Source: a virus
Taxonomy: Duplodnaviria > Heunggongvirae > Uroviricota > Caudoviricetes
Length of the DNA: 21,121 bases
Direction: 5' to 3' (one strand)
Virus record (IMG/VR): IMGVR_UViG_2690316318_000022
Both the position numbers and the translations under genes were made by a program. The notes beneath the pieces are model-generated. The model searched no databases and was not told the origin of the DNA. It was given only the letters and a program-made list of their open reading frames with translations. Of this stretch, positions 4,683-19,055 are shown piece after piece (positions within the stretch are counted from its first letter, which is position 1; each line of letters opens with the position of its first letter).

Positions 4683-5105
4683 TTATGCCGCCGAGCAGCT
4701 CCTACGCAAAGTCCTGATAGCCTGAGGCTTTGACTGAACCGACTGATCCATTTCGAGCACCACATCCAGCATGGCTAAGCAACCGTCAATAAATCCCTCT
4801 GCCGCCTGAAGCCTCTTCAGAACGTGGGTGTGAGATACGCCGAGCTTCTCACCCATCGCCCTCACGGGCATGGCCTGGACGTAATGCCACTCAAGGAGCG
4901 TGCACAGATACGGATCTTTTTTCTTCAGGCAGCTCATAGCGGAGTTGATGATAAGACCGTCATTGTCACTGCATTTCAGCCTTCCAGACTGCGTCGCGGG
5001 TAGCAGATTCTTAAACCCGGCTGCAACAGGAGGAAAGTAGACGCTACCACCTTCACTCGCTGCCCAGCCACCCCAGCGCTCTAAAACCTGTTGAATATTA
5101 CGCAT
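4683..5105 (-). CDS. Q: Late-gene antitermination protein Q (phage 82-type Q family)
   Basis: 140 aa. N-terminus MRNIQQVLERWGGWAA and the central DLL..Y....M.....G.KLG. pattern match the Q antiterminators of 82-like lambdoid prophages as I recall them. Position between the replication and lysis modules is canonical. Confidence 0.8.
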   Translation of the reverse strand: MRNIQQVLERWGGWAASEGGSVYFPPVAAGFKNLLPATQSGRLKCSDNDGLIINSAMSCLKKKDPYLCTLLEWHYVQAMPVRAMGEKLGVSHTHVLKRLQAAEGFIDGCLAMLDVVLEMDQSVQSKPQAIRTLRRSCSAA

Positions 5106-5169
5106 AGCTCTGACCTCTACGTTTTGCTACGAAAAAATTTTCTGAGAACTACGTCTGTATATCCGTGGG

Positions 5170-5425
5170 TGTGGATAACGCAGTTCCGATTCGCATATTG
5201 CATGTATCAACATGCAAAAAGTTGCTAATGCGGAGTGGAACCACCTGCCCCCACCTGGAACCACCTTTTCCTAACCTTTCCCTCAATCGACTTATATATA
5301 TATATGGGGTTTCTAGTAGAAAGGCGGTTCCAGTGGTTCCAGTGGTTCCGCCCCGCTTGCCACAAGGTCTGCAAGGTGGAACCTCCTTCTCTTTTAGGTG
5401 GTTCCGCGTGGTTCCAGCGGTTCCC
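5170..5425. promoter_or_regulatory. Putative origin of replication: DnaA box, 20-bp palindrome, iterons in both orientations, (TA)6 unwinding element
   Basis: Seen directly: TGTGGATAA (reverse complement of the TTATCCACA DnaA box) at 5170-5178; perfect palindrome TTGCATGT-ATCA-ACATGCAA at 5198-5217; TGGAACC at 5236 and 5256; alternating TA run at 5294-5305; GGTTCC at 5326, 5335 and 5344 (9-bp spacing), GGAACC at 5378, GGTTCC at 5400, 5410 and 5419. Sits at the 3' end of the primase-helicase gene. Confidence 0.65.
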
Positions 5426-7580
5426 AAACCTTGCATTTTTTCCCCCCAATTCGCCTTTGGGCACGCTTATACCCGCAATTTTGCAAAACATTACTAATTC
5501 GCATTTCTTCGCGTTTTCCGATGCGGTCAGGATTTAGCCCAATCGCATCACGCAAAACATCACTTGCGCGTAAAAATTCGCAATTTCGCGGAAGTTCATT
5601 AGTCATCAGGTCTGGCGTGTCGAGCCATTTCTCTACCGTTTCAAGCCAAGCATCCTTGATGGTGTACTGTTCATGGACACTCGCTGCCAGTTGTTCAGCC
5701 TCACGGAACTGGATACCCCCCAGACGCTGAAACACCTCACGAGCCTCAGCCCAAAGTAAAAGGAGATCTCTTTTTATCGCTTTCACGTCGACTTTCGACA
5801 CTTCCACGGGGAGCCAGCGACGGTTACCAGTCTTGTCCGCAAGGAATTCGTCCTCATTGGTGGTACCAACGAACACCAGGCGACGAGGAAACTGGGTGGC
5901 GAACTCCCGGTATTTCGGGATCCAGTTTTCGTGAGTACGCGTCACAAACGCTTTGATTGACTCCAGCTCTTTGGTATTAAGTCCGCGCAGTTCACCAATC
6001 TCTGCCACCAGCCGACCACGCATTTTTCGAGCGAGATCATCGTCTTTTTCGGCAAAAGAGATTTCAGTAAAAAACGCAGGATCAGGGCTCAGTGCCTCCA
6101 CTCCGGAAGACTTACCGCAGCCCTGCGGACCAACGAGGATCGGCACCATATCCGCTTTGATGCCTGGCTCCAGTACTCGCCCCGCCAACGCGGTCCACAT
6201 GTACATAGACACCGCACGGGTATAAGGCGTGTCGGCGGTACCGAAGTGCGTATGGTAGAAACATTCGATGCGCGGCACGCCATCCCACTCCAGTCCGTTC
6301 AGCCAGGTGATCGCTGAATCGAATGGTTGTTCATCGGCTGCAAGTAACACCACATCGCGAATAAGTTCACGACCAACAGGTTTAAATCCCCGCTTTTCCA
6401 TCGTGATGCGCAGGCGCGCATAATCCGCATCGGTGAAAGCCTGCCACTGGCCGGAGCCTGCCTGGGCGAACATGATTTCGTCACGGAACTGGTCAAAGCG
6501 AATATCGATGTCCACGAAGTCAGGACGCACAACGGCTTTTGCCGCGTTGCTGATGGTGGCCTCGATGCGGCCCCATTTGTCGCGCTCGAACGCCGGCAGC
6601 GGTAACGGCTCGGCCACTTCGGTGCTGGTCAGGTCTTCGAAATCGTCGTTGCGGATCCCGATGGCATTAAGGAAATCGCCGTCGTCGCGGTGCGCGCAGC
6701 TGGCGTGCAGGCACTTAAAATGCCCCTGCTCAAAGCCCGCGGTACCACCCGGGAAGTAAACTGTGCTGGTCGGGTCACCGCCAGTGCTGTGACCGTCTTC
6801 AAACGGGCAGCGGATGTAACGCTCTCCGTTCGCTCCGTCACGTAATGTCCAGCCGTTAGCATCCAGATAATCCGCTGTTTCATCCGTGGCGCCAGGCGTG
6901 AACGTTGAGCGATCGCGCATCTTAGTGCTACCAGCTTCAATGGTTACCGACACAGGGAGTTGTTCAGCCAGGCGCTGCCACAGCGTTTCAAGCTGCTCAC
7001 CAGTAATAGCCGGAGGTTCATCCGGCAAACCGCCGTCCCATTCAATACGCGCGCCGCTGCTGTGCGTACCACAGGCAACGAACTGCTGCCCGTTCGCCAG
7101 CAACTCGATAATGCCCATATCCCCCGCCAGGCGATGGATACGCTTACGGAAATCGCCATCAACAGCCAGCAGGTACAGGCATTTGTTACTGTTGGCGCGC
7201 CAGCGACGCGGTGGCAGCTCGCCAAGCAACTGCACCAGCGTTTTGCGAATATCGGCTTGGATGTCTTCGTCTTCGCTGTCACAGTCCAGCGCCAGCCAGC
7301 CATGGCCTGTACGCACGCAGATCCCATAGTCCGGTTCGTTCGACCAGCGGGCAAAATCATGCTCAGTTACGACGTGCCCAGTCCAGTCGTTAATTCCGGT
7401 AGCCAGACGGTTGCGGTTATACAGGCTCGGCGTTTTGCCAAGCACTTTGAGTTTGCTGTTCGGTGAAATAATCGCGCCCGGATTGCACACGACCGGTAGC
7501 AGCTGGTCCGTACGACCCAGCACCAGGTCGAAGTGGAACCATTCGTCAGGCGTCGCCCCCCACGGTTTGCTATCAGACAT
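5394..7580 (-). CDS. Replication initiator: AEP-type primase/polymerase N-terminal domain fused to an SF3 (D5/P4 alpha-like) helicase
   Basis: 728 aa. Acidic DxD-type motif LALDCDSEDED in the N-terminal region; Cys/His cluster CPFEDGH...HFKCLHASCAH; Walker A VGPQGCGKSS and a Walker B-like acidic stretch in the C-terminal half. Translationally coupled to cro and followed by the iteron array. Confidence 0.8.
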   Translation of the reverse strand: MSDSKPWGATPDEWFHFDLVLGRTDQLLPVVCNPGAIISPNSKLKVLGKTPSLYNRNRLATGINDWTGHVVTEHDFARWSNEPDYGICVRTGHGWLALDCDSEDEDIQADIRKTLVQLLGELPPRRWRANSNKCLYLLAVDGDFRKRIHRLAGDMGIIELLANGQQFVACGTHSSGARIEWDGGLPDEPPAITGEQLETLWQRLAEQLPVSVTIEAGSTKMRDRSTFTPGATDETADYLDANGWTLRDGANGERYIRCPFEDGHSTGGDPTSTVYFPGGTAGFEQGHFKCLHASCAHRDDGDFLNAIGIRNDDFEDLTSTEVAEPLPLPAFERDKWGRIEATISNAAKAVVRPDFVDIDIRFDQFRDEIMFAQAGSGQWQAFTDADYARLRITMEKRGFKPVGRELIRDVVLLAADEQPFDSAITWLNGLEWDGVPRIECFYHTHFGTADTPYTRAVSMYMWTALAGRVLEPGIKADMVPILVGPQGCGKSSGVEALSPDPAFFTEISFAEKDDDLARKMRGRLVAEIGELRGLNTKELESIKAFVTRTHENWIPKYREFATQFPRRLVFVGTTNEDEFLADKTGNRRWLPVEVSKVDVKAIKRDLLLLWAEAREVFQRLGGIQFREAEQLAASVHEQYTIKDAWLETVEKWLDTPDLMTNELPRNCEFLRASDVLRDAIGLNPDRIGKREEMRISNVLQNCGYKRAQRRIGGKKCKVWEPLEPRGTT

Positions 7581-7583
7581 GGG

Positions 7584-7808
7584 TTACACCTTTTGCTGCT
7601 CTGAATTTTCGCCGTTTAATAGCCAGTCAGGATCACATTTAAGAACTTTTGCCAATTCAAGAATGAAGCCAGTACGAGTGGCACGACCGGATTCAAGGTA
7701 CTGAACAGACTGCTGGCGCATACCAACCCTTTCCGCCAATGAAGTTTGGGTTATGCCTAAGGCTTTGCGGCGCTCCTTTATACGTGAAGCAAGAGTGGAA
7801 CCGGACAT
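7584..7808 (-). CDS. cro: Cro-like HTH (XRE family) regulator
   Basis: Small HTH protein (LGITQTSLAERVGMRQQSVQYLESG), first gene of the operon divergent from cI. ATG at 7808 has a GAGGAAG SD; the track ORF starts at an upstream GTG (7823) that I consider less likely. Confidence 0.75.
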   Translation of the reverse strand: MSGSTLASRIKERRKALGITQTSLAERVGMRQQSVQYLESGRATRTGFILELAKVLKCDPDWLLNGENSEQQKV

Positions 7809-7828
7809 AAATAACTTCCTCACATGTT

Positions 7829-7895
7829 TACAGGTTTACTTGTAATTAACCCACAGGCACTCTTGTTTGTCAAATACAGATAGCTCTGTAATTAT
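7829..7895. promoter_or_regulatory. Rightward operator (OR)-like region with divergent promoters for cro (minus) and cI (plus)
   Basis: Two 16-bp sites of form TACAnn-N4-nnTGTA: TACAGGTTTACTTGTA (7829-7844) and TACAGATAGCTCTGTA (7875-7890). Minus-strand -35 TTGACA (7868-7873) with a -10-like GTTAAT; plus-strand -35 TTGTCA (7867-7872) with a -10-like AATTAT (7890-7895). Confidence 0.6.
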
Positions 7896-7917
7896 CAATG
7901 ACAGAAAAGGAGTCGAT

Positions 7918-8547
7918 ATGAATCTTGCTATCCGGGCCAAAAAGCGCAGAACAGAACTCAATTTAACTCAGGTCGAAGTTGCTAAACGAGCGGGCATAAG
8001 CCAGCAGTCAATAGAAGCTATAGAGAACGGCAAAACGCTAAAACCACGTAACCTTCTTGCTTTAGCATCGGCTCTGGAGTGTGATCCTAAGTGGTTACTA
8101 CTCGGGGGTGATGTTGTCACGAATTTCAACTACGGAGCCCGAAGGGTGCCTGTTCTAAGCTATGTACAAGCCGGAGCTTTCACAAGCACTGAACAACTTC
8201 ATGAAGGCGGTGATTTCGAATACATCCTGACAACAACGGAATTATCAGAGCGTTCGTTTGCTCTCCGTATACGCGGAGATTCGATGGAGCCAGAATTTAA
8301 AGAGGGTGACATCGTTATAATTGACACTGACGTATACCCTACCCCTGGCGAATTTGTTGCGGCATGCAATGGTAGCCATGAAGCAACGTTCAAAAAGTAC
8401 CGCCCGGTAGGGATTGGCGCTAAAGGTGAGGAAGATTTTGAACTTGTTCCCTTAAACAGCGATTACCCTATTTGCCGCTCCTGGGAAAAACCTATCAAGA
8501 TTATTGGAACAATGGTGGAGCATCGCATATTCCGCCGAAAAAGATAA
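7918..8547 (+). CDS. cI: CI-like repressor: N-terminal HTH plus C-terminal S24 (LexA-like) autopeptidase domain
   Basis: HTH (LNLTQVEVAKRAGISQQSIEAIENG), candidate Ala-Gly cleavage site in VQAGAF, Ser nucleophile motif GDSMEP and a downstream Lys. ATG at 7918 has a strong AAGGAG SD; the track ORF begins upstream at 7867. Confidence 0.85.
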   Translation: MNLAIRAKKRRTELNLTQVEVAKRAGISQQSIEAIENGKTLKPRNLLALASALECDPKWLLLGGDVVTNFNYGARRVPVLSYVQAGAFTSTEQLHEGGDFEYILTTTELSERSFALRIRGDSMEPEFKEGDIVIIDTDVYPTPGEFVAACNGSHEATFKKYRPVGIGAKGEEDFELVPLNSDYPICRSWEKPIKIIGTMVEHRIFRRKR

Positions 8548-9715: not shown

Positions 9716-9865
9716 ATGAAACCTGAACACATCCATCGACTGACGGGGCGCGATGTTCTCCGTTATCGCCGTAAAAACTTCGATTTGATGACCGGTCTGG
9801 CCGTTGCCACTGCGCTCGGTCTGATCATCACTTTCATTCTCCTTGTAGCGAGGACCACAGTATGA
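9716..9865 (+). CDS. Small tail-anchored membrane peptide (49 aa); not in the ORF track
   Basis: ATG at 9716 with AAGGAA 9 nt upstream. Hand translation [49 protein letters not shown]. Its stop overlaps the start of the next ORF (ATGA). Confidence 0.45.
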   Translation: MKPEHIHRLTGRDVLRYRRKNFDLMTGLAVATALGLIITFILLVARTTV

Positions 9866-10764
9866 GTTTAGAAACCAGTCTCGAACTTAATAATCAACTT
9901 CTGGCACAACATAATGCGCTGCTTGAACGTCTTATCCGCACGATGGCATCAGGTATTGTTATGCATCCTGACACGATTTCACGAGTGCAGGAATGTCGGG
10001 ATACAGCAACTGAAACTGAAAATATGTCAGCGGCAATGACACTGGATGATCTGGAGTTCAGCGACGTTATCGCACTGGCTGTTTTCTACCCGGTAGCCAC
10101 CCCTATCACAGAAGACATGCTGCAACGTGCTGTTGCCTACCGTGATGCTGAAGGCGATAAACGAGTAGTTCAGATTGATGCTCTCGACAGCGCATTGCAG
10201 GGCGTCAAACGAGCCAGGGCACTGCATAAACCCGCTCTTCTGGACCTGTCCCGTAACATTCTTAAGTTCTGGGACGACCTGCCAACCATCGGCGAGCGAC
10301 GTGCTTTTGCCGAGCAACTACTTGATGCACCTGCAGATGGGCGTGATGAAGTTAAGCCGAAAAAGGCCAGTAACAAAGATGGAGAACGCACGGGGCCGTT
10401 TTACGTCAAAAATGTATCCGGCACAGCAGCCAGTGAACTCCACACCTTACGCAAGTTGAACGAGATGCTTAAAAAAGGCCATATCGAGATCAACCGTGTT
10501 GAGTACCTTCAGCTGCAGGAAGAATTTGCACGCAGAGACGCAGCAAATTCCAGCCAGAATAATGACGCCAAAGATGACCATACAATTGATTTCGCGGCAC
10601 TACGCAAACAAGCTGAAGGGTTGATCCTCCAGTTAGCAAAAGGGGGTTACCGGGCAGAAGCTATTGCAATTCTGGAAAAACAGGGAGCCAGGAAACTTGG
10701 TGAAGTAACGGATGAAAATCTCGCTGAAGTAATCACCCTGGCTGAAAAAGCACTGGAGGGTTAA
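9862..10764 (+). CDS. Hypothetical acidic protein (300 aa), first large gene of the early operon
   Basis: Track ORF translationally coupled to flanking genes. No motif recognised. Confidence 0.55.
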
Positions 10765-10766
10765 TC

Positions 10767-12068
10767 ATGCCAGACGTTCATGCACAACTTTCTCCATCAT
10801 CAGCGCATCGATGGATGCGCTGCCCAGGAAGTCTGGCGCTGGAGGCCACACAACCGGATAAAGAAACAACTTTTGCAATCGAGGGCACTGCAGCGCACGC
10901 GCTTGCTGAAAAAGTTCTACGAAACAGGCAAAGCCACCCGGAACACTACGCCGGATGCAATGTTTCTATGTTTCTCGGCTCATACCCCCTTCGCGAAAAT
11001 CCTGATGATACATCTGGCCCACAGGTGGATGATGAAATGGTCGAAGCCGTTGGCCGGTATGTTGATACGGTCTGGACTCTTGCACAGAATAATGAACTAT
11101 TGGTTGAACAACGTGTTGATTTTTCACATATAACGGGGGTGGAAGAATCTTTCGGAACTGCCGACGGCATAATCATCGCTGGTAACGAATTACAAATCCA
11201 CGACCTGAAATATGGCAAAGGCGTCCGCATTGATGCAGAACAAAATGAGCAACTACAACTGTATGCTCTGGGTGCGCTCGAACAATTCAGCATGCTGTAT
11301 GACTTTGAGACTGTAAGATTATTTATTCACCAGCCAAGGCTCAACCACGTTTCAGAATGGTCGTTAACCGTGCAGGAACTTCAGTCTTTCGGTAAACGAG
11401 CACAGGAGGCCGCAACCAGTGCGATCCTTGTTCTCAATATTGCTGAATGCGAAGGCATTGAGACACTACCGCTGGAAAACTTCATACCTGGAGAAAAACA
11501 GTGCCGCTTCTGTAAAGCAAAAGCTATTTGCACTGCCCAGAAAATGCAGCATTTACAAACAGCGGCCAGCGACTTTGAAGATCTGACAAAGCCTGTCAGC
11601 GAAATAATCACCAATGCCAGCGCACGTGTACCTCTGTTAACCATTGAGCAGCTTGCGGAGATCTATAGCCAGGCCGACTTTATTGAGTCCTGGCTAAAGG
11701 CAGTACGGGACCGGGTTCACAATGAACTCAATGCCGGACATCCGGTACCGGGGTTTAAACTGGTAACAGGAAAACAAGGTAACCGGGCCTGGAGTGATGA
11801 AGAGGCAGCTCGCGCACTTCTGAAGGACCAGTTCAGGTACAAAACTGAAGAAGTATTCGACTTTAAACTTATTAGTCCCACAAAAGCCGAAAAACTTATC
11901 AAAAAGGCCAGTCCACGCCGTTGGTCAAAAGTCGAGGCACTGATAACACGAGCTGATGGTAAACCAACCGTCGTTCCCGAGTCAGACCCACGCCCCGCAC
12001 TCAATATCAACCCTGTAAATGATTTCGACGACGTATCCGACGATACGCTAACCGCAGACCTCATCTGA
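10767..12068 (+). CDS. DUF2800-family PD-(D/E)xK nuclease (Cas4/RecB-like, Cys cluster)
   Basis: N-terminal [15 protein letters not shown] signature, nuclease core HDLKYGKG with QLQLY (QxxxY), and C-terminal [10 protein letters not shown] cysteine triad; GGAGGG SD. Family assignment from memory. Confidence 0.7.
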
Positions 12069-12083
12069 TTTAAGGAAATACCC

Positions 12084-12632
12084 ATGAAACTGAAGCTGAA
12101 CAATGTTCGTCTGGCCTTCCCGTCTCTGTTTGAAGCTAAAACTGTAAACGGCGAAGGCGATCCGCGTTTCTCCGCAGTATTTTTAATGTCTCCCAAACAC
12201 CCACAACTGGAAGAAATCCGTAAAGCTATGAAGCAGGTAGCGAAGGAAAAATGGGGAGAGAAGTGGGAGCCCATTTATAACCAGCTGGAGAAAAAACTCA
12301 ATCTGTGCCTGCATGATGGTGATGAAAAAGCAGAGTATGAAGGCTTCCCCGGCAATTTCTTCCTGAATGCTGCTAACAAAGCGCGCCCAGCTGTTCTTGA
12401 TCGCGATCGTTCGCCACTAATTCAGGCTGATGGACGTCCCTATGCAGGGTGCTATGTAAACGCCGTTATCGATATCTGGGCACAGGACAATAATTTCGGT
12501 AAACGCATTAATGCCTCACTCGGCGGAGTCCAGTTCCTGCGAGACGGCGATGCATTCGCTGGCGGCGGAGTGGCAAGCGCTGACGATTTCGACGATATCA
12601 GCGAAGGTGCTGATGCTGAAGCACTAATTTAA
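12084..12632 (+). CDS. DUF2815-family protein (putative ssDNA-binding partner of DUF2800)
   Basis: N-terminal NVRLAFPSLFE motif and acidic C-terminal tail (DDFDDISEGADAEALI); conserved pairing with DUF2800 and a family A polymerase. Confidence 0.65.
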   Translation: MKLKLNNVRLAFPSLFEAKTVNGEGDPRFSAVFLMSPKHPQLEEIRKAMKQVAKEKWGEKWEPIYNQLEKKLNLCLHDGDEKAEYEGFPGNFFLNAANKARPAVLDRDRSPLIQADGRPYAGCYVNAVIDIWAQDNNFGKRINASLGGVQFLRDGDAFAGGGVASADDFDDISEGADAEALI

Positions 12633-12683
12633 AAATATTCATCCCCCAGCTACGTGCTGGGGTATCTCATGAGGGAAAGTATA

Positions 12684-13325
12684 ATGTCACAGCCCGTATT
12701 AACTAATCACCTTAAAACTCAAATCATCAATAACGCACTTGAGAAAGCGGGTATTCCCAAACGTAAATCAGCACTACGAGCTGCTCGTGTTGAATGGGCC
12801 GAACGTGTTCGGCTTGCAGCTATCGGGGGCGTAGAGAAAGAAGCTGAAATATTAAAAAATATAAAAAAGATTGAATCCATGGTCACAAAAATCCCTAATT
12901 CATTAAAAACCAATAGTTCTTTAATTCGAAAAGATTGCTGCATATATCTCAATCTGGCTGGAGCCAGAGCAAACATTTATTTCAATGGCAACTACAGAGG
13001 TTATGAATCAGGAGCCCCCGAGCATATTAATAAAATAGCACCTGCAGAATTTACTCTACTTGGCGAAGATCCTCTGGTAACGGAGTTTTATAGCTTTGAT
13101 GCTCTCTACACACAAATTAAAAGTGATGAAACCGAAATCATACAGAACGTCAGCGCGGCTCTAAATAAAGTTCGGACAGTAAAACGATTACTGGATGTAT
13201 GGCCCGAAGCTAAAGAACTGCTTCCAACAGACGCACCGCCAGTCCCTTTAGCACCAGCAGTACATCGAGAGACATTAAATGAAATGATAGGCCTTCCTAC
13301 CAATACAGTGTCTGATACTCAATAA
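12684..13325 (+). CDS. Hypothetical protein (213 aa from ATG 12684; the track ORF starts at GTG 12654)
   Basis: SD GAGGGA 7 nt upstream of the ATG at 12684. Moderately AT-rich. 3' end overlaps the convergent gene by 7 nt. Confidence 0.5.
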   Translation: MSQPVLTNHLKTQIINNALEKAGIPKRKSALRAARVEWAERVRLAAIGGVEKEAEILKNIKKIESMVTKIPNSLKTNSSLIRKDCCIYLNLAGARANIYFNGNYRGYESGAPEHINKIAPAEFTLLGEDPLVTEFYSFDALYTQIKSDETEIIQNVSAALNKVRTVKRLLDVWPEAKELLPTDAPPVPLAPAVHRETLNEMIGLPTNTVSDTQ

Positions 13326-14008
13326 CAAGGGGGATGCTTATTATATGATTTTGAACATTTTACAATCTCGTTAAGAGGCGTGAAATCAAAATCTCTGAAT
13401 AACACATCAGGATACTTCGCTCTTGCTTTATCCAGCAAACCAGTTAAAGTATTTTTTGTGTTACCCAACATTGTATTAACCGCCACTACATGTCTAATTT
13501 CTGGAGGTTTATCTATACCACCAGAAATTGCTTCATTAAGAACCGACGCCAGTGGGGTTTGTCCCTTACTTGTTGAATCCCACAGCGTCATTAACAGACG
13601 AGCTGCGTCTATAAATAGCTTTTTGTCAGCATTTGGCTTGACAGTAATACCGGAACTACCTGAGCCAGAACCGGAACGTTCTATTGCTGCACTGGTATCC
13701 GATTTCATAGGATTAAATAACGGAAGCTCTGTACAACCGATACGCCGAATGAAATCCTTTGCAACATCTCTACCACAGAAAAAAGCCCCTGTACAATTTT
13801 CATCAGAGCGTTTTTTAAATGAAAAACAATAGTACTGATCGGTTAACGGATAACCGGAATAACTGGTTTTAGTTTGTCCAGTAATAAGTTTCAGGTGTGC
13901 AACAGGCTGAATAATAAAATCCCGAACTATCGCATCTTTTATGTCGTTACCACGGTGACAATAATATTCAGGTAATCCATTAGGCTGTCTCTTATTACCC
14001 ACAGTCAT
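13319..14008 (-). CDS. Hypothetical two-domain protein (229 aa): Cys/His-rich N-terminal region, SGSGSGSSG linker, C-terminal domain
   Basis: Strong SD AAGGAGA 7 nt upstream of the ATG at 14008. AT-rich by eye (about one third GC in sampled stretches). Antisense to the surrounding replication operon. Confidence 0.6.
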   Translation of the reverse strand: MTVGNKRQPNGLPEYYCHRGNDIKDAIVRDFIIQPVAHLKLITGQTKTSYSGYPLTDQYYCFSFKKRSDENCTGAFFCGRDVAKDFIRRIGCTELPLFNPMKSDTSAAIERSGSGSGSSGITVKPNADKKLFIDAARLLMTLWDSTSKGQTPLASVLNEAISGGIDKPPEIRHVVAVNTMLGNTKNTLTGLLDKARAKYPDVLFRDFDFTPLNEIVKCSKSYNKHPPCY

Positions 14009-14069
14009 TAGTTGTCTCCTTTAATTCATGATATCTAGCATTTAACCATATACCATATGAGGATATTTT

Positions 14070-16133
14070 ATGTCCAATATACTATGGGGCGACCTGGAAA
14101 CCTATTGTGACATTCCGATCAACAACGGTACCCATGCGTATGCCGAAGGCGTTGAAGTGATGCTTTTCGCATGGGCTATCAACGACGGGCCAGTAAACGT
14201 GTGGGATACCACTGCCGGTGGTGGTATTCCACACGGCTTATACGAAGCAATCGCAGACCCTGAAACCCTGCTTTATTTCCATAACTCTCACTTCGACCGC
14301 ACCGTTCTACGTTATGCAATGCCGCGACTGGCACCGCCAGTCGAACGTTGGCGCGACACGATGGTGCAGGCGCTGGCGCACGGTCTCCCGGGGTCTCTGG
14401 GAGAACTCTGCGAAATACTAGGCGTCCCGCAAGACAAAGCGAAGGACAAAGAAGGTAAAGCGCTGATCCAGCTGTTCTGTAAGCCACGCCCGAAAAACAG
14501 CAAACTGCGTCGGGCCACCAGCAAAACCCACCCAGAAGAATGGCGGCGCTTTGTTGCTTACGCCGGACTGGATATCGAGGCAATGCGCGAAGTCTGTAAA
14601 CGTCTGCCGAAGTGGAATTATCAAGGGACAGAGCTGGCGCTCTGGCATCGTGATCAGCAGATCAACGACCGGGGCGTCTGCATGGACATGCAACTCGCGC
14701 GCGCTGCGATCGAAGCGGTAGACCAGGAGCAAAAGCGCCTGGCAAAGCGTACACAGGAAATGACTGATGGCGAAGTGCAGGCAGCCACACAACGAGACGC
14801 GTTGATTAAGCACATTGTTGAATCCTACGGTGTGGAGCTACCAGACATGCAACGCAGTACTCTGGAACGTCGTATTGCCGACCCCGATTTACCATCTGCC
14901 GTGAAAGAACTGCTGGCTATCCGACTGCAGGCCAGTACTACCAGCACCAGTAAATACAAGGCACTGATGAAAGGCGTAAGCCACGACGGGCGCTTACGCG
15001 GTACGCTACAGTTCTGCGGGGCGTCACGTACCGGTCGTTGGGCCGGACGGCTATTCCAGCCCCAGAATCTTCCCCGCCCTTCACTAAAACAGGAACAAAT
15101 AGACGAAGGCATCGAAGCACTGAAAGCCGGATGTGCAGACCTGCTGTTTGACAATATCATGGAACTAACCAGTTCAGCGTTACGTGGCTGCATTATCGCG
15201 CCAACAGGCAAAAAACTGGTGGTAAGTGACTTGTCGAACATTGAAGGCCGTATGCTGGCATGGCTGGCAGGAGAAGAATGGAAACTGAATGCATTCAGAG
15301 AGTACGACGCCGGAACGGGTCCGGACTTATATAAACTGGCGTATGCAAAAGCTTTCGATATTGCACCAGATGATGTTGATAAACACATGCGTCAGATCGG
15401 TAAAGTCATGGAACTCGGTCTGGGTTATGGTGGTGGTGTGTCGGCCTTCATCACTTTTGCACTGGTTTACGGTCTCGATCTCGACGAGCTGGCAAACGCT
15501 GCACTGCCAAACATTCCCCGCGATGTTATCCGCGAGGCGAAAAGCTGGTACGGCGAATCGGTTAAACGTAAGTCAACCTACGGCCTTTCTGAACGGGTAT
15601 TTATCGCCTGCGACTCACTTAAACGTCTCTGGCGCCGGGCGCATCCCGCGACCTGTGATTTCTGGTACGAACTGGAGCGCACCGTCCGCACTGCAATCGC
15701 CACACCGCAAAAAACATTGTATTGCGGTTATCTTAAAATCCGCCGCGATGGCGCGTGGCTGCGCATACAGCTACCATCCGGACGCGCTGTATGCTACCCG
15801 TCTCCGGTTATCGAAAAAGGGAATATCACCTACATGGGTGTTAACTCTTATTCGCGTAAATGGCAACGACTCAAAACCTACGGCGGAAAGCTGGTGGAGA
15901 ACGTCACCCAGGCGGCCGCCCGCGACGTTCTGGCCGGAAACATGCCGCTTATCGAAGATGCCGGTTACAGCATTGTGCTGACGGTACACGACGAGGTGAT
16001 CACCGAATCACCTGACACAGAAGATTTCAACGATAAAGCGCTTTCCGCGCTTCTCTCCACTAACCCCGAATGGGCGCCCGATATCCCACTGAACGCTGGC
16101 GGTTTTGAGGCGTACCACTACCGTAAGGATTAA
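14070..16133 (+). CDS. Family A DNA polymerase (Pol I-like) with 3'-5' exonuclease domain
   Basis: Exo I motif GDLETY (DxE); polymerase motif A DLSNIEGR; motif [17 protein letters not shown]; motif C VHDEV. 687 aa. Confidence 0.9.
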
Positions 16134-16138
16134 CTCCT

Positions 16139-16354
16139 ATGTCATTTAAATACCGGGATAATCCACTTTATTACAGGGCTGCAAGGGAAGCTTTGCGACT
16201 TGAACAATCCGGCGAATATGACCGGGCAGCGGAGGTCTGGGCAAAAGCCAACCGCGAATCACATCACGAACTGAATCAGGAATGGAGTGAACGCAGATCT
16301 GATTTTTGCCTGATGCAGAACATGCGTGAAAAGCGTAAGGCGGTCGAAGAATGA
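16139..16354 (+). CDS. Hypothetical small protein (71 aa)
   Basis: Track ORF with AAGGA SD, translationally coupled to neighbours. Confidence 0.45.
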   Translation: MSFKYRDNPLYYRAAREALRLEQSGEYDRAAEVWAKANRESHHELNQEWSERRSDFCLMQNMREKRKAVEE

Positions 16355-16650
16355 TCGTTTACGTTGCCGGGCCGATGAGCGGTTACGAGCAATTTAACCG
16401 CCCGGCCTTTCATTCCGCAGCAAAGAGGCTAACGGACAAGGGATATGTTGTGCTTAACCCCGCAACTTTACCCAATGGTTTGACACAGGCTCAGTACATG
16501 GACATCTGCCTCGCAATGCTTCGCTGTGCCGATACGATTTATATGCTCAAAGAGTGGGAGTACTCTGCCGGCGCACGTGCAGAAAACGCGTTGGCAGAGA
16601 AACTGGAATTGAATGTGCTTTTTGAAGAGTGGGATTCAGATGGCCTATGA
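16351..16650 (+). CDS. DUF4406-family protein (nucleoside 2-deoxyribosyltransferase-like fold)
   Basis: N-terminal VYVAGPMSGYEQFNRPAF...VVLNPA pattern characteristic of DUF4406, from memory. Confidence 0.6.
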   Translation: MIVYVAGPMSGYEQFNRPAFHSAAKRLTDKGYVVLNPATLPNGLTQAQYMDICLAMLRCADTIYMLKEWEYSAGARAENALAEKLELNVLFEEWDSDGL

Positions 16651-16909
16651 ACGTGAAAACCTAATCGAGAAGCATCTCGTCGCCGAAGTGAAAAAGGCTG
16701 GTGGGGTCGCCTTTAAGTTCATATCACCTGGTCGCCGCTCGGTACCAGATCGCATTGTTCTGCTACCTGGCGGCCGTCTCGTTTTCGTTGAATGTAAATC
16801 TCCCGGCAAGCCACCACGGCCTGACCAGTTGCGCGAGCATGAACGTCTGCGAAAGCTGGGCTTTACCGTGGTAGTACTGGATAGCAAAAATTTAGAGGGG
16901 ATATTGTGA
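16640..16909 (+). CDS. VRR-NUC domain nuclease
   Basis: PD-(D/E)xK-like core DRIVLLPGGRLVFVECKSPG. Start assigned to the ATG at 16640, overlapping the preceding gene's stop; the track ORF starts at 16613. Confidence 0.7.
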   Translation: MAYERENLIEKHLVAEVKKAGGVAFKFISPGRRSVPDRIVLLPGGRLVFVECKSPGKPPRPDQLREHERLRKLGFTVVVLDSKNLEGIL

Positions 16910-16914
16910 GACAA

Positions 16915-17640
16915 TCATTCTGAGCGATTTTTCTTGAGCTTAGAAGCTTTTAAAAAACATACTTTTAGTTGTTGTGTTTCTTTTATGCTTACAGGAATTA
17001 ATTTCCCCTCAATTCCTTCGACACTCATAAATTCAGAGCTATTTTTTTTACAGTTCCCCAAGACAAATTTTCCGTTATAGCTTTCGATAATATAAGCATC
17101 ATATTTTTTAGAATAAAAAAGAGGCTCATCTGATAAGTATGCCCATGCCCACCCAAGGACTGAAGGAAGCATTGCTATGGATATAAAAAGCATAACCCCA
17201 TGAGTTTTGTTTTTTATTCTAAATTCATTCCTAATAAAAACAGATACTGCCCTGACACTGATAGGGCTAATAAATCCCAATAGTATTGCTTGGGTAGCCA
17301 CATCCCTTATGGATTTTTCATAAAGGTATGAGCTACCGCCATATAAATACATTGTCCAGTATGAAAGCAAAGAGGCCAAAATGAAGAAAAATAAATACAC
17401 CCACCATGGAATATTCTTCTCTTCAGTATCAATATGCAGCAAAGCGACTAAGGTGCACAAAAGTCCTAATGCAATAACAGAAAATTTAACTATTTCCTCA
17501 ATCCCAATAGAAATAAAACTTACAGGGAATCCATAAAATGAGCAGTACCCTTTGTAAAAAGAAAAAGCCATAAAATAAAGGGCGGCCAAGAGAACCGTTG
17601 TAATTGATAAATCTTTTACATTCATGATGTTCAAGAGCAC
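16915..17640 (-). CDS. Hypothetical multi-pass membrane protein (241 aa), AT-rich antisense insert
   Basis: AAAGGTG SD-like before the ATG at 17640. About four or five hydrophobic segments in the first 170 aa and a charged C-terminal tail. About one third GC in sampled stretches, against roughly 55% in the flanks. Convergent with VRR-NUC and divergent from SNF2. Confidence 0.6.
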   Translation of the reverse strand: MLLNIMNVKDLSITTVLLAALYFMAFSFYKGYCSFYGFPVSFISIGIEEIVKFSVIALGLLCTLVALLHIDTEEKNIPWWVYLFFFILASLLSYWTMYLYGGSSYLYEKSIRDVATQAILLGFISPISVRAVSVFIRNEFRIKNKTHGVMLFISIAMLPSVLGWAWAYLSDEPLFYSKKYDAYIIESYNGKFVLGNCKKNSSEFMSVEGIEGKLIPVSIKETQQLKVCFLKASKLKKNRSE

Positions 17641-17663
17641 CTTTCTAATCAGGGATTTTCTTC

Positions 17664-19055
17664 ATGATAACTTTTAAACCACGTCCCTACCAAGATCTCA
17701 TCATCAATCATCAAATCGAGACCCTGCGCGGCAACATCTGGGCAGGGATGGGGATGGGTAAAACCGTAGCGACACTCACCACGCTGGAAGATCTTTTCAT
17801 GGCTGGAGCAGAAACACGCCCCGCGCTGGTCCTCGCGCCGCTACGCGTTGCAGCAAGCACTTGGCCTGATGAAGCTGTTAAATGGGGGCATCTGCGTAAT
17901 ATTGAGGTACAGCCGATCATCGGTAACGCCAAAGCGCGCTCTACAGCGCTGGCGAACAGCAACGCGAGCGTGTTCACAATCAACTACGATAACCTTGTCT
18001 GGCTGGTTGAAGAATTGGGAGAACGATGGCCGTTCGGTACTGTCATTCCAGATGAAAGCACCCGGCTAAAATCCTTCCGGCTGCGAGGTGGTGGTAAGCG
18101 CGCGGCGGCGCTGGGCAAAGTGGCGCACAAGTATGTCCGGCGCTGGATAAATCTCACCGGTACGCCAGCACCGAACGGCCTGGTAGATTTGTGGGGACAA
18201 TCGTGGTTTGTGGACCAAGGGCAACGTCTCGGGCGCACTTACGGCGCGTTTACCTCACGCTGGTTCAAATCGATACAGTTTCCGGGGCAGAGCTGGACCA
18301 AACTGGAGCCTTTTGCTCACTCACAGGGTGAAATACAGCGAGCGTTAGCCGATGTGACCCTCTCGCTGGATGCGGCCGACTGGTTCGATATCAAAGACCC
18401 CATCCATAACGTAATCCGCGTGGATATGCCGCCGAAGGCCCGTCAGCAGTATCGTGAAATGGAAAAGGAAATGTTCCTCGAGCTGAATGGCGAAGGCATC
18501 GAAGCACCGAACGCCGCGGCAAAGACACTGAAGTGTCTGCAAATCGCCAGCGGCGCAGTATACACAGATGACACCGGAAGTTGGTCAGAACTGCATGACA
18601 CCAAACTACAGGCGCTGGACAGCATACTGACCGAAGCAGCTGGCGCACCTGTGCTGGTTGCTTATCACTGGAAACACGATCTTGAACGCTTGCTTAAAGC
18701 ATTTCCTCGCGGTCGTCACCTCGACCAGGATCCACAGACACTACGTGACTGGAATTCCGGAAAGATTCCTGTTCTCTTTGCACACCCAGCCAGCGCGGGC
18801 CACGGTCTGAACATGCAGGACGGCGGAAACATACTGGTATTTTTCTCACATTGGTGGGACCTGGAGCAGTATCAGCAAATTATTGAACGTATCGGCCCAA
18901 CCAGACAGATACAGGCCGGACACAATCGTCCGGTATTTATTCACCACATTATTGCTGCCGACACTATGGACGAAATGGTGATGGAGCGGCGCAACTCAAA
19001 ACGAACAGTGCAGGACATCCTGCTCGATGCCATGAAAAAGAGAGGTATAGCATGA
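17664..19055 (+). CDS. SNF2-family (SF2) helicase/ATPase
   Basis: Q-motif PRPYQ, Walker A GMGMGKT, DExx-type motif VIPDEST, C-terminal helicase domain; 463 aa. Confidence 0.85.
   Translation: MITFKPRPYQDLIINHQIETLRGNIWAGMGMGKTVATLTTLEDLFMAGAETRPALVLAPLRVAASTWPDEAVKWGHLRNIEVQPIIGNAKARSTALANSNASVFTINYDNLVWLVEELGERWPFGTVIPDESTRLKSFRLRGGGKRAAALGKVAHKYVRRWINLTGTPAPNGLVDLWGQSWFVDQGQRLGRTYGAFTSRWFKSIQFPGQSWTKLEPFAHSQGEIQRALADVTLSLDAADWFDIKDPIHNVIRVDMPPKARQQYREMEKEMFLELNGEGIEAPNAAAKTLKCLQIASGAVYTDDTGSWSELHDTKLQALDSILTEAAGAPVLVAYHWKHDLERLLKAFPRGRHLDQDPQTLRDWNSGKIPVLFAHPASAGHGLNMQDGGNILVFFSHWWDLEQYQQIIERIGPTRQIQAGHNRPVFIHHIIAADTMDEMVMERRNSKRTVQDILLDAMKKRGIA

Follow-up and report, generated by a model that had tools for sequence, protein, structure and literature searches.

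What is the dense group of short repeats that follows the primase-helicase gene of IMG/VR virus record IMGVR_UViG_2690316318_000022, and which protein reads it? The record, a stretch of 21,121 nucleotides (nt) that we call the window and to whose full length all coordinates refer, is a temperate lambda-like prophage of E. coli. An earlier note, made from its letters alone, had proposed an iteron origin served by the adjacent primase-helicase with a specificity of its own, and our analysis bears this out. Positions 5237-5424, probably extending to about 5195, very probably form the replication origin recognized by that protein, in a rep-ori replicon of the kind described for Staphylococcus aureus pathogenicity islands (SaPIs) and phage-inducible chromosomal islands (PICIs). 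This reading, which is built on sequence comparison, draws on the homology of the initiator to Rep1 of SaPI1, on a three-cluster layout kept among relatives, and on iterons that change in step with the C-terminal end of the initiator across 108 loci.

The hexamer GGTTCC or its complement GGAACC occurs 14 times in the window, and 9 of these copies fall within the 188 nt of 5237-5424. Shuffled versions of the window hold 8.9 copies each, about 0.08 per 188 nt, and a Poisson estimate puts the chance of at least nine copies in such a span near 1e-15. In plus-strand coordinates the copies start at 5237 and 5257 (minus orientation), 5326, 5335 and 5344 (plus), 5378 (minus), and 5400, 5410 and 5419 (plus), with steps of 9 and 9 nt and of 10 and 9 nt within the triplets and 20 nt between the members of the inverted pair. 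The hexamer, which the earlier note took for the iteron, is indeed enriched; the true repeat unit is longer, a 9-nt iteron (approximately) of the form GYGGTTCCR whose 12-nt context on the sense strand of the gene is CTGGAACCACYK. The array and the gene that precedes it are made up as follows.

5394-7580, minus strand: initiator gene, 728 amino acids (aa), with an N-terminal primase-polymerase (prim-pol) domain of the archaeo-eukaryotic primase (AEP) type, a Cys/His zinc motif, a superfamily 3 (SF3) VapE-type helicase (aa 393-657) and a predicted C-terminal winged helix (aa ~644-721)
5424-5438, minus strand: wing residues K715-C-K-V-W719 of the initiator, second strand of the predicted wing hairpin (wing strand beta-3), modeled at a predicted local distance difference test score (pLDDT) of ~80; the sole protein segment that co-varies with iteron type
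5398-5424, plus strand: iteron cluster I, three direct copies (GTGGTTCC, GTGGTTCC and GCGGTTCC) overlapping the last 10 codons of the initiator gene
5378-5385, minus strand: lone inverted iteron some 20 nt from cluster I; about 100 loci carry a copy at the corresponding place
5324-5349, plus strand: iteron cluster II, which flanks the AT-rich core on one side; three direct copies, 9-nt period
5288-5311, no strand: AT-rich core containing (TA)6 at 5293-5305, a block constant across iteron types that reads AACCCCATATATATATATAAGTCG on the sense strand; proposed melting site
5237-5264, minus strand: iteron cluster III, two exact copies and a decayed middle copy, inverted relative to cluster II and on the other side of the AT-rich core

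Two opposed iteron sets, three copies at 5324-5349 (plus) and two at 5237-5264 (minus), flank the (TA)6 tract, as had been proposed, and the region of the AT-rich core has a GC content of 0.35-0.375. The overlap of the last triplet with the final 10 codons of the 728-aa open reading frame (ORF) likewise stands. Where three direct triplets plus inverted copies had been claimed, the nine copies and their 9-10-nt phasing hold, but only two of the groups are triplets: the third (5237-5264) consists of two inverted copies with a decayed one between them, and the inverted copy at 5378 stands alone. The array starts inside the last 10 codons of the initiator and fills most of a 288-nt gap (5106-5393) between minus-strand genes, the 728-aa ORF of 5394-7580 and a 140-aa ORF of 4683-5105 that encodes a Q-family antiterminator, so that six of the nine repeat copies are non-coding. 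The initiator tail W-E-P-L-E-P-R-G-T-T is the translation of three iterons (5397-5426). At the very end of this tail, residues 725-728 are modeled at a pLDDT below 50, and at two related loci (L043 and L097) the ORF continues further and gives the initiator a longer tail.

The initiator itself supports the reading as an origin. Its helicase domain matches the Pfam VapE-like family (E 2e-60), VapE-like and DUF5906 are its sole Pfam matches, and its PHROG matches are to DNA helicase and primase families. In a phmmer search of the PDB the sequence matched a single solved structure, 7PDS (E 8.7e-34, aa 393-657), which is Rep1 of the staphylococcal island SaPI1; a Foldseek search with the AlphaFold2 (AF2) model also returned 7PDS as the best match (E 3e-18), in an alignment of about 455 columns that takes in almost all of the Rep1 chain. 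The fold of the modeled N-terminal domain resembles the primase-polymerases of pRN1 and NrS-1, and PF09250 Prim-Pol is recorded on homologues of the initiator, which number roughly 1,166. Because the protein combines a VapE-like SF3 helicase with a prim-pol-like N terminus, the label primase-helicase is a fair one. The full-length model has a mean pLDDT of 69.8. In it the C-terminal domain, about 85 aa long, is predicted to form helices at 644-653, 672-680 and 689-701 and a beta hairpin at 704-711/714-721 with its turn at G712-G713; this H-(b)-H-H-b-b topology has a pLDDT of 75-85, and a separate model of the domain agrees. When the domain alone was searched with Foldseek, nearly all matches were winged-helix proteins (PadR, MarR, kleisin, RTP, Stf76), and on the strength of the models a winged helix is likely.

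SaPI Reps are self-loading initiator-helicases whose C-terminal winged helix recognizes short iterons, and SaPI origins place 6-12 iterons immediately downstream of the rep ORF around an AT-rich center, with at least two opposed iterons on each side (PMC9371898). The window offers the same combination: an SF3 helicase homologous to Rep1, an initiator that doubles as helicase, an origin directly 3' of its gene, a predicted C-terminal winged helix and opposed iterons around an AT-rich center. Its primase and helicase are fused, as they are in PriRep5 of SaPI5 (PMC9371898). The anatomy of the window fits the description of the SaPI rep-ori point by point. The E. coli PICI EcCICFT073, which shares its host species with the window, is reported to be organized in the same way, with a pri-rep and ori that support plasmid maintenance (PMC6092414). 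Differences are also clear. The iterons of SaPIs are 5-6 bp, compared with ~9 bp in the window, and the window adds a third iteron cluster and a lone inverted copy at or over the gene end, along with a primase domain of the pRN1-like AEP prim-pol type. PICIs and SaPIs are helper-dependent satellites without structural or lysis genes, whereas the window belongs to a complete temperate phage of Enterobacterales, with terminase (small subunit), lysis genes including a holin, cI/cro, Q, an integrase and its own DNA polymerase, PolA.

Other well-studied origins fit less closely. The alpha protein of satellite phage P4 is a multifunctional primase-helicase whose C-terminal domain binds direct and inverted short iterons near an AT-rich region, and the window shares with it a primase-helicase and direct and inverted short iterons near an AT-rich region. 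P4, however, needs two separate cis sites, ori and crr, its ori is not adjacent to the gene end, its type I iterons read TGTTCACC, and its primase is not known to be of the AEP prim-pol type. The window's iteron is GYGGTTCCR, and its initiator has an N-terminal domain resembling the AEP prim-pols of pRN1 and NrS-1. A search for a second site of the P4 kind, which the earlier note had suggested, found no second iteron cluster in the 21 kb of the prophage that the window covers; GTGGTTCC with at most one mismatch gave isolated single matches outside 5237-5424. The proposed likeness to P4 ori and crr with a different iteron is therefore retained as a loose analogy, with a different iteron as stated and without the second site or the alpha-type primase. 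The Rep proteins of pSC101, P1, F, RK2 and R6K have no helicase or primase and rely on DnaA, DnaB and DnaC. The window resembles these plasmids in its direct repeats beside an AT-rich element and in a neighboring DnaA box, and differs in that its initiator is itself the helicase-primase and in that the box is not kept among relatives; an initiator of the RepA, pi or TrfA type lacks a helicase, and the window's protein carries an SF3 P-loop homologous to that of Rep1. In lambda the ori is part of the O gene itself, and O uses P to bring in host DnaB. The lambdoid context, the position in a rightward early transcription unit and iterons beside an AT-rich region recall lambda, but a Pfam scan of the window found no homologues of O or P. 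The origin is not that of a PICI, not a P4 ori/crr and not of the DnaA-dependent plasmid type; it is of the rep-ori kind already known from SaPIs and PICIs.

Comparison with relatives shows which parts of this locus are held constant and which are exchanged. A 401-nt region is present in 105 of 5,426 complete E. coli genomes, those of strains IAI1 and H10407 among them, always on the chromosome, and the matches form two identity classes, at >=95% and ~75%. A DNA search of a phage collection with the ori matched only the start of the Q gene, and relatives were gathered through the protein instead; 105 further loci were collected in this way and compared by script, and the co-variation table covers 108 loci, from Enterobacterales to Caulobacter phages. 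On the sense strand of the gene, the layout hardly ever departs from one order: two or three direct iterons at the gene end, one inverted iteron ~20 nt on, then, after ~35 nt, three direct iterons with a 9-nt period, and, after ~67 nt containing CCCC(AT)nAAGTCG, two or three inverted ones. This order was seen in about 100 loci, among them E. coli, Yersinia phage YeP4, APSE-1, Xenorhabdus, Photorhabdus and Providencia, and the same plan occurs in Acidovorax phage ACF1 (iteron CTGTTCCTAC) and Caulobacter phage Jess A (TGTAWCCACC). A counterpart of cluster I was found in all relatives, at a varying position relative to the stop codon.

The iterons themselves differ. Across related loci there are 12 different iteron sequences, and all copies change in concert between types. 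They share an ACC/CCAC core, with the variable bases lying 5' of it. Examples, besides that of the window, come from the ~75% identity class and from more distant relatives, which keep the architecture but repeat another word.

E. coli M-17: TGGTACAG
third E. coli group: GTGGTAACA
Yersinia phage YeP4: GGTTGTCTA
APSE-1: GGTTGTTAC

DNA identity profiles show that, between types, a cassette of ~5195-5440 reaching from the wing codons to a palindrome is replaced while both flanks remain at least 90% identical. Within the cassette, the core block AACCCCATATATATATATAAGTCG is nearly unchanged between types whose flanking iterons have been swapped. Where two phages share a type but their genes have diverged, the ori is the best-kept part, at >=90% identity. 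In YeP4 a block similar to the core block, CGACTATATAAGGGG, runs in the opposite orientation. The position of the stop codon varies among relatives, from 54 nt within the array to 9 nt ahead of the first iterons, and because it shifts in this way the repeats are not conserved as coding sequence; conservation as coding sequence alone was one of the outcomes that the earlier note had named as overturning its proposal. ORFs that run over the repeats (5149-5436 minus, 5165-5497 plus and 5225-5491 minus) were considered as genes and rejected: they are incompatible with the cassette replacements and were left unannotated by the Prokaryotic Genome Annotation Pipeline (PGAP), which placed no gene in the gap between primase and Q in eight RefSeq genomes.

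What, then, distinguishes an initiator that is served by one iteron from an initiator served by another? Over aa 70-700 the E. coli proteins share 90-100% identity regardless of which iteron they accompany. Variation that tracks the iterons is confined to the extreme C terminus, to five residues (715-719) that follow an invariant G713-K714. Twenty-five variants of these residues each map to a single iteron type among the 12, over all 108 loci, a relationship that is correlative. An apparent exception, VLKVW, is found with a mix of GTAACCAC and GTATCCAC copies; since both forms occur together in every locus, it counts as a single degenerate type. The pairs below are from proteins in which the preceding strand is identical (KRVQRRVDGK).

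KSKVW: GGAACCAC
MTRIF: TGTACCAA
VLKVW: GTAWCCAC
KMRIF: TGTCCCAA
MTKAW: GTAGCCAC

The correlation survives large changes elsewhere in the protein. A Photorhabdus protein (L034), unrelated over its N-terminal half, also pairs KCKVW, the wing of the window, with GGAACCAC. Residues that follow the wing are irrelevant, as type C occurs with the tails RRA or QRMLPPVTTF and type B with EAVSQPVPASK or EPV. Two independent series suggest a correspondence between residue and base, again correlative: Lys715 goes with G:C where Val, Met or Leu goes with T:A, both for KCKVW/GGAACCAC versus VCKVW/GTAACCAC and for KMRIF/TGTCCCAA versus MTRIF/TGTACCAA. By the same kind of comparison, VLKVW accepts A or T at one iteron position.

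Other candidates for the specificity determinant were rejected. A variable patch near the N terminus (aa 27-66) is shared between the window and type-C phages (L005-L007) whose iterons differ. One cluster of cro-like proteins occurs with eight iteron types, and single clusters of Q-like proteins occur with many. In the small terminase subunit, TerS, the N-terminal 85 aa, which hold its DNA-binding part, hardly differ between types A, B and C (99-100% identity). To judge from these alignments, the most likely determinant of specificity is the stretch of residues 715-719 (KCKVW in the window) in the second strand of the wing hairpin. Given the predicted fold, it is reasonable to infer that the helix reads the constant iteron core while the wing reads the variable bases.

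From here we make a more tentative proposal, which we regard as possible but somewhat short of probable: that the five-residue wing strand, and not the invariant helix, reads the variable bases, and that swaps of a ~250-bp cassette that holds the wing codons and the ori have given these phages at least 12 initiator/origin pairs, each orthogonal to the others. If this is true, an MTRIF wing would prefer CTGTACCA, and the diversification would reflect selection against cross-talk, titration and hijacking among co-resident prophages and satellites. Co-resident copies do occur, as at least one E. coli genome carries the region at two places. The sampled IMG/VR and RefSeq loci hold several iteron types, an observation relevant to selection for origins that do not cross-react.

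Several observations weigh against these interpretations. The putative recognition helix (aa 689-701, KREEMRISNVLQN) is invariant although the iterons vary, a combination that requires either an unusual read-out by the wing or contributions from further residues. The wing codons lie 0-40 nt from the first iterons, and physical linkage within recombining cassettes could alone yield much of the co-variation, which is why we offer the wing code as a hypothesis. The APSE-type wing VCRVW resembles VCKVW, yet its iteron is rather different (GTAACAACC versus GTAACCAC), so any code that relates residue to base is not a simple one. The full-length AF2 model has a predicted template modeling score (pTM) of only 0.38. 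Each fold match of the C-terminal domain is weak, the best having an E value of 0.04 and none reaching 0.001, and with E values of that size we rate the winged helix as likely and not as proven. Finally, cluster I and its lone inverted partner are a conserved extra to which the origin model assigns no role.

A mechanism that accommodates the anatomy can be outlined. The initiator, a putative fusion of AEP primase-polymerase, SF3 (VapE-type) helicase and C-terminal winged helix encoded immediately upstream of the origin, would bind the 9-bp iterons GYGGTTCCR through its winged helix. Binding at the opposed sets of 5324-5349 and 5237-5264 would place initiator assemblies on either side of the (TA)6 core at 5288-5311. 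The core would then melt and the SF3 ring would load itself, as proposed for SaPI Reps, after which the prim-pol domain would lay down the first primers. The phage's own PolA (14070-16133) and single-stranded DNA-binding protein (SSB; 12084-12632) may extend these primers. Early rightward transcription crosses the origin and may aid its opening, as at the lambda ori.

Two further elements had been thought to belong to the origin, and relatives again help to place them.

5170-5178, minus strand: DnaA box, exact consensus TTATCCACA, in the leader of the Q gene and outside the ori cassette
5198-5222, no strand: 8-4-8 palindrome (perfect at 5198-5217) and adjacent A/T run, sense strand CTTTTTGCATGTTGATACATGCAA, inside the variable ori cassette

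The consensus DnaA box near the repeats is real, an exact 9-mer that lies 59 nt from cluster III where an estimated ~0.16 exact boxes per window would be expected by chance. A plasmid-style origin in which host DnaA bound at this site helps to open the DNA or to recruit DnaB, as at pSC101, P1, F and RK2, would account for it, and the same box is found in 24 related loci. Those 24, however, are part of ~75 comparable loci, and all carry one variant of a single Q-gene leader; in the other ~50 the box is absent (more than one mismatch), and sister variants of the leader read TTACCCACG, TTATTCACG or TTACCTATG at its position. No DnaA box within one mismatch was found in loci with another downstream gene, nor in YeP4 or APSE-1, and origins with type-A iterons, the type of the window itself, exist without the box (L051, L097, L053, L054, L094, L011 and L050). 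The box also lies outside the cassette that carries specificity. With a helicase and a primase in the initiator, and PolA and SSB supplied by the phage, the job that DnaA performs at plasmid origins should not be required here. On this comparative evidence the box is not a conserved component of the origin, the suggestion that host DnaA participates is not supported, and we consider a DnaA-assisted origin unlikely. The box may have a local accessory role in the phage of the window.

An array of nine protein-binding sites between the early operon and Q could instead be an operator or roadblock that times Q and the late genes. Rightward transcription of cro and the primase gene crosses the array before it reaches Q. 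As a scan of 5106-5393 predicted no intrinsic terminator in this gap between the primase-helicase gene and Q, it is plausible that read-through into Q is controlled in another way. Yet the array is also found behind primase genes that are followed by something other than Q (YeP4, a group with a 91-aa 'dn0' gene, Jess A and ACF1), and the AT-rich core with its inverted flanking iterons, together with homology to SaPI Rep1 and its downstream ori, points to replication; as a complete explanation we find transcriptional control quite improbable. A packaging (pac) site recognized by TerS is less probable still. Some pac sites, such as that of phage P1, carry short repeats around a central site, and the resemblance of repeat clusters around a central AT-rich site is only a general one. 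The array always follows the primase-helicase gene and never the terminase genes, and TerS is not the specificity partner, as its N-terminal 85 aa are unchanged across iteron types. With Cro, Q and TerS each unable to be that partner, the operator and pac-site readings are both disfavored. That the repeats are a product of chance or of coding constraint, with no function of their own, is scarcely credible: one triplet does overlap coding sequence, but nine copies stand where ~0.08 would be expected, six of them are non-coding, the stop codon moves among relatives and all copies change together between types. A roadblock effect could coexist with origin function: initiator bound at the origin could limit read-through into Q and so affect the timing of the late genes. 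No N-like gene was seen in the phage.

The palindrome, described earlier as perfect and just outside the repeats, is present at 5198-5217, but its perfect form is specific to one lineage; it lies within the swapped cassette. What is widely kept is only its first half with the preceding T-run (GTAAYTTTWTTGCA; a TTTTTTGCA-like motif), which extends even to a Burkholderiales contig. Nearly all loci carry this T-rich motif GTAAYTTTWTTGCA, ending in TTGCA (5205-5226), at a distance of 15-20 nt past the last inverted iteron; YeP4 and the Burkholderiales contig (L018) are among them, and the identity of the downstream gene makes no difference. The perfect palindrome of the window is a local extension of the motif. 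As single-stranded DNA the window's palindrome folds at -7.8 kcal/mol (z ~-3). A conserved hairpin was rejected as an explanation, with stabilities ranging from -8.8 to 0 kcal/mol in relatives and only the GTAAYTTTWTTGCA half kept, and so was an intrinsic terminator, as neither strand has a T-run after the palindrome and the terminator scan was negative from the primase gene to Q. The palindrome matches no Rfam family. A start site for the primase or a site for a host factor would be guesses as to its role.

In the literature searched, of which our coverage was incomplete, we found no earlier description of this origin or of replication in these phages, only the analogous work on SaPIs and PICIs. 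For the non-lambda replication modules of Shiga toxin (Stx) phages, nothing was known of how they work (PMC8951638). Allelic variants have been reported among PICIs, with no residue-level link to iteron sequence in the part of the report available (PMC6092414). What appears to go beyond this earlier work, as judged from the aligned loci, is a natural set of initiator/iteron pairs, at least 12 in number, whose initiators differ from one another in 3-5 residues of the wing. Our analysis assigns an origin and an initiator to widespread temperate phages of E. coli, Salmonella, Enterobacter, Klebsiella and Yersinia, and to the APSE phages of aphid symbionts, and indicates that the replicon design of staphylococcal satellites is also used by full phages in Alpha-, Beta- and Gammaproteobacteria. 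Near-identical initiators whose iterons differ along with 3-5 residues are a ready-made series for the study of how a winged helix switches DNA specificity and, if confirmed, would supply orthogonal origin/initiator pairs. The comparison also carries a caution, that a consensus DnaA box near an array should not be taken as part of an origin without comparative support.

The surroundings of the origin are those of a phage with its own replication machinery. The right arm encodes a cI-like repressor (7867-8547), a cro-like helix-turn-helix protein (7584-7823), the 728-aa initiator, the Q antiterminator, a holin and the small terminase subunit, and RefSeq relatives additionally encode a lysozyme. 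The leftward arm (9862-19055, plus strand) carries a full set of replication genes and, in addition to those listed here with the Q gene, an integrase.

4683-5105, minus strand: Q-family antiterminator gene (Pfam Phage_antitermQ, E 5e-42), next gene downstream of the origin; context and not part of it
10767-12068, plus strand: DUF2800/PD-(D/E)XK nuclease
12084-12632, plus strand: Enc34-type SSB
12654-13325, plus strand: Nmad5, 'nucleotide modification associated domain 5'
14070-16133, plus strand: family A DNA polymerase (PolA)
17664-19055, plus strand: SNF2-type helicase

Nmad5 hints at modification of DNA bases. An Rfam scan of 4900-5700 matched no family; its one sub-threshold match, to c4-a1b1 (the C4 antisense RNA targets of P1/P7), lies inside the Q gene at 5000-5040 (minus strand) and, at 16.3 bits against a gathering threshold of 46.7 (E 0.22), is probably due to chance. 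The initiator gene has a modular history. In Escherichia phages vB_EcoM-683R1, -689R2, -611R5 and -606R2, where the start of the Q gene is identical to that of the window, a protein is 62% identical to the prim-pol half only (aa 1-321); APSE phages show the converse, a helicase half that is 72% identical and an unrelated N terminus. The primase and helicase halves have therefore been exchanged as separate modules. The possession of its own polymerase is unusual for a lambda-like prophage.

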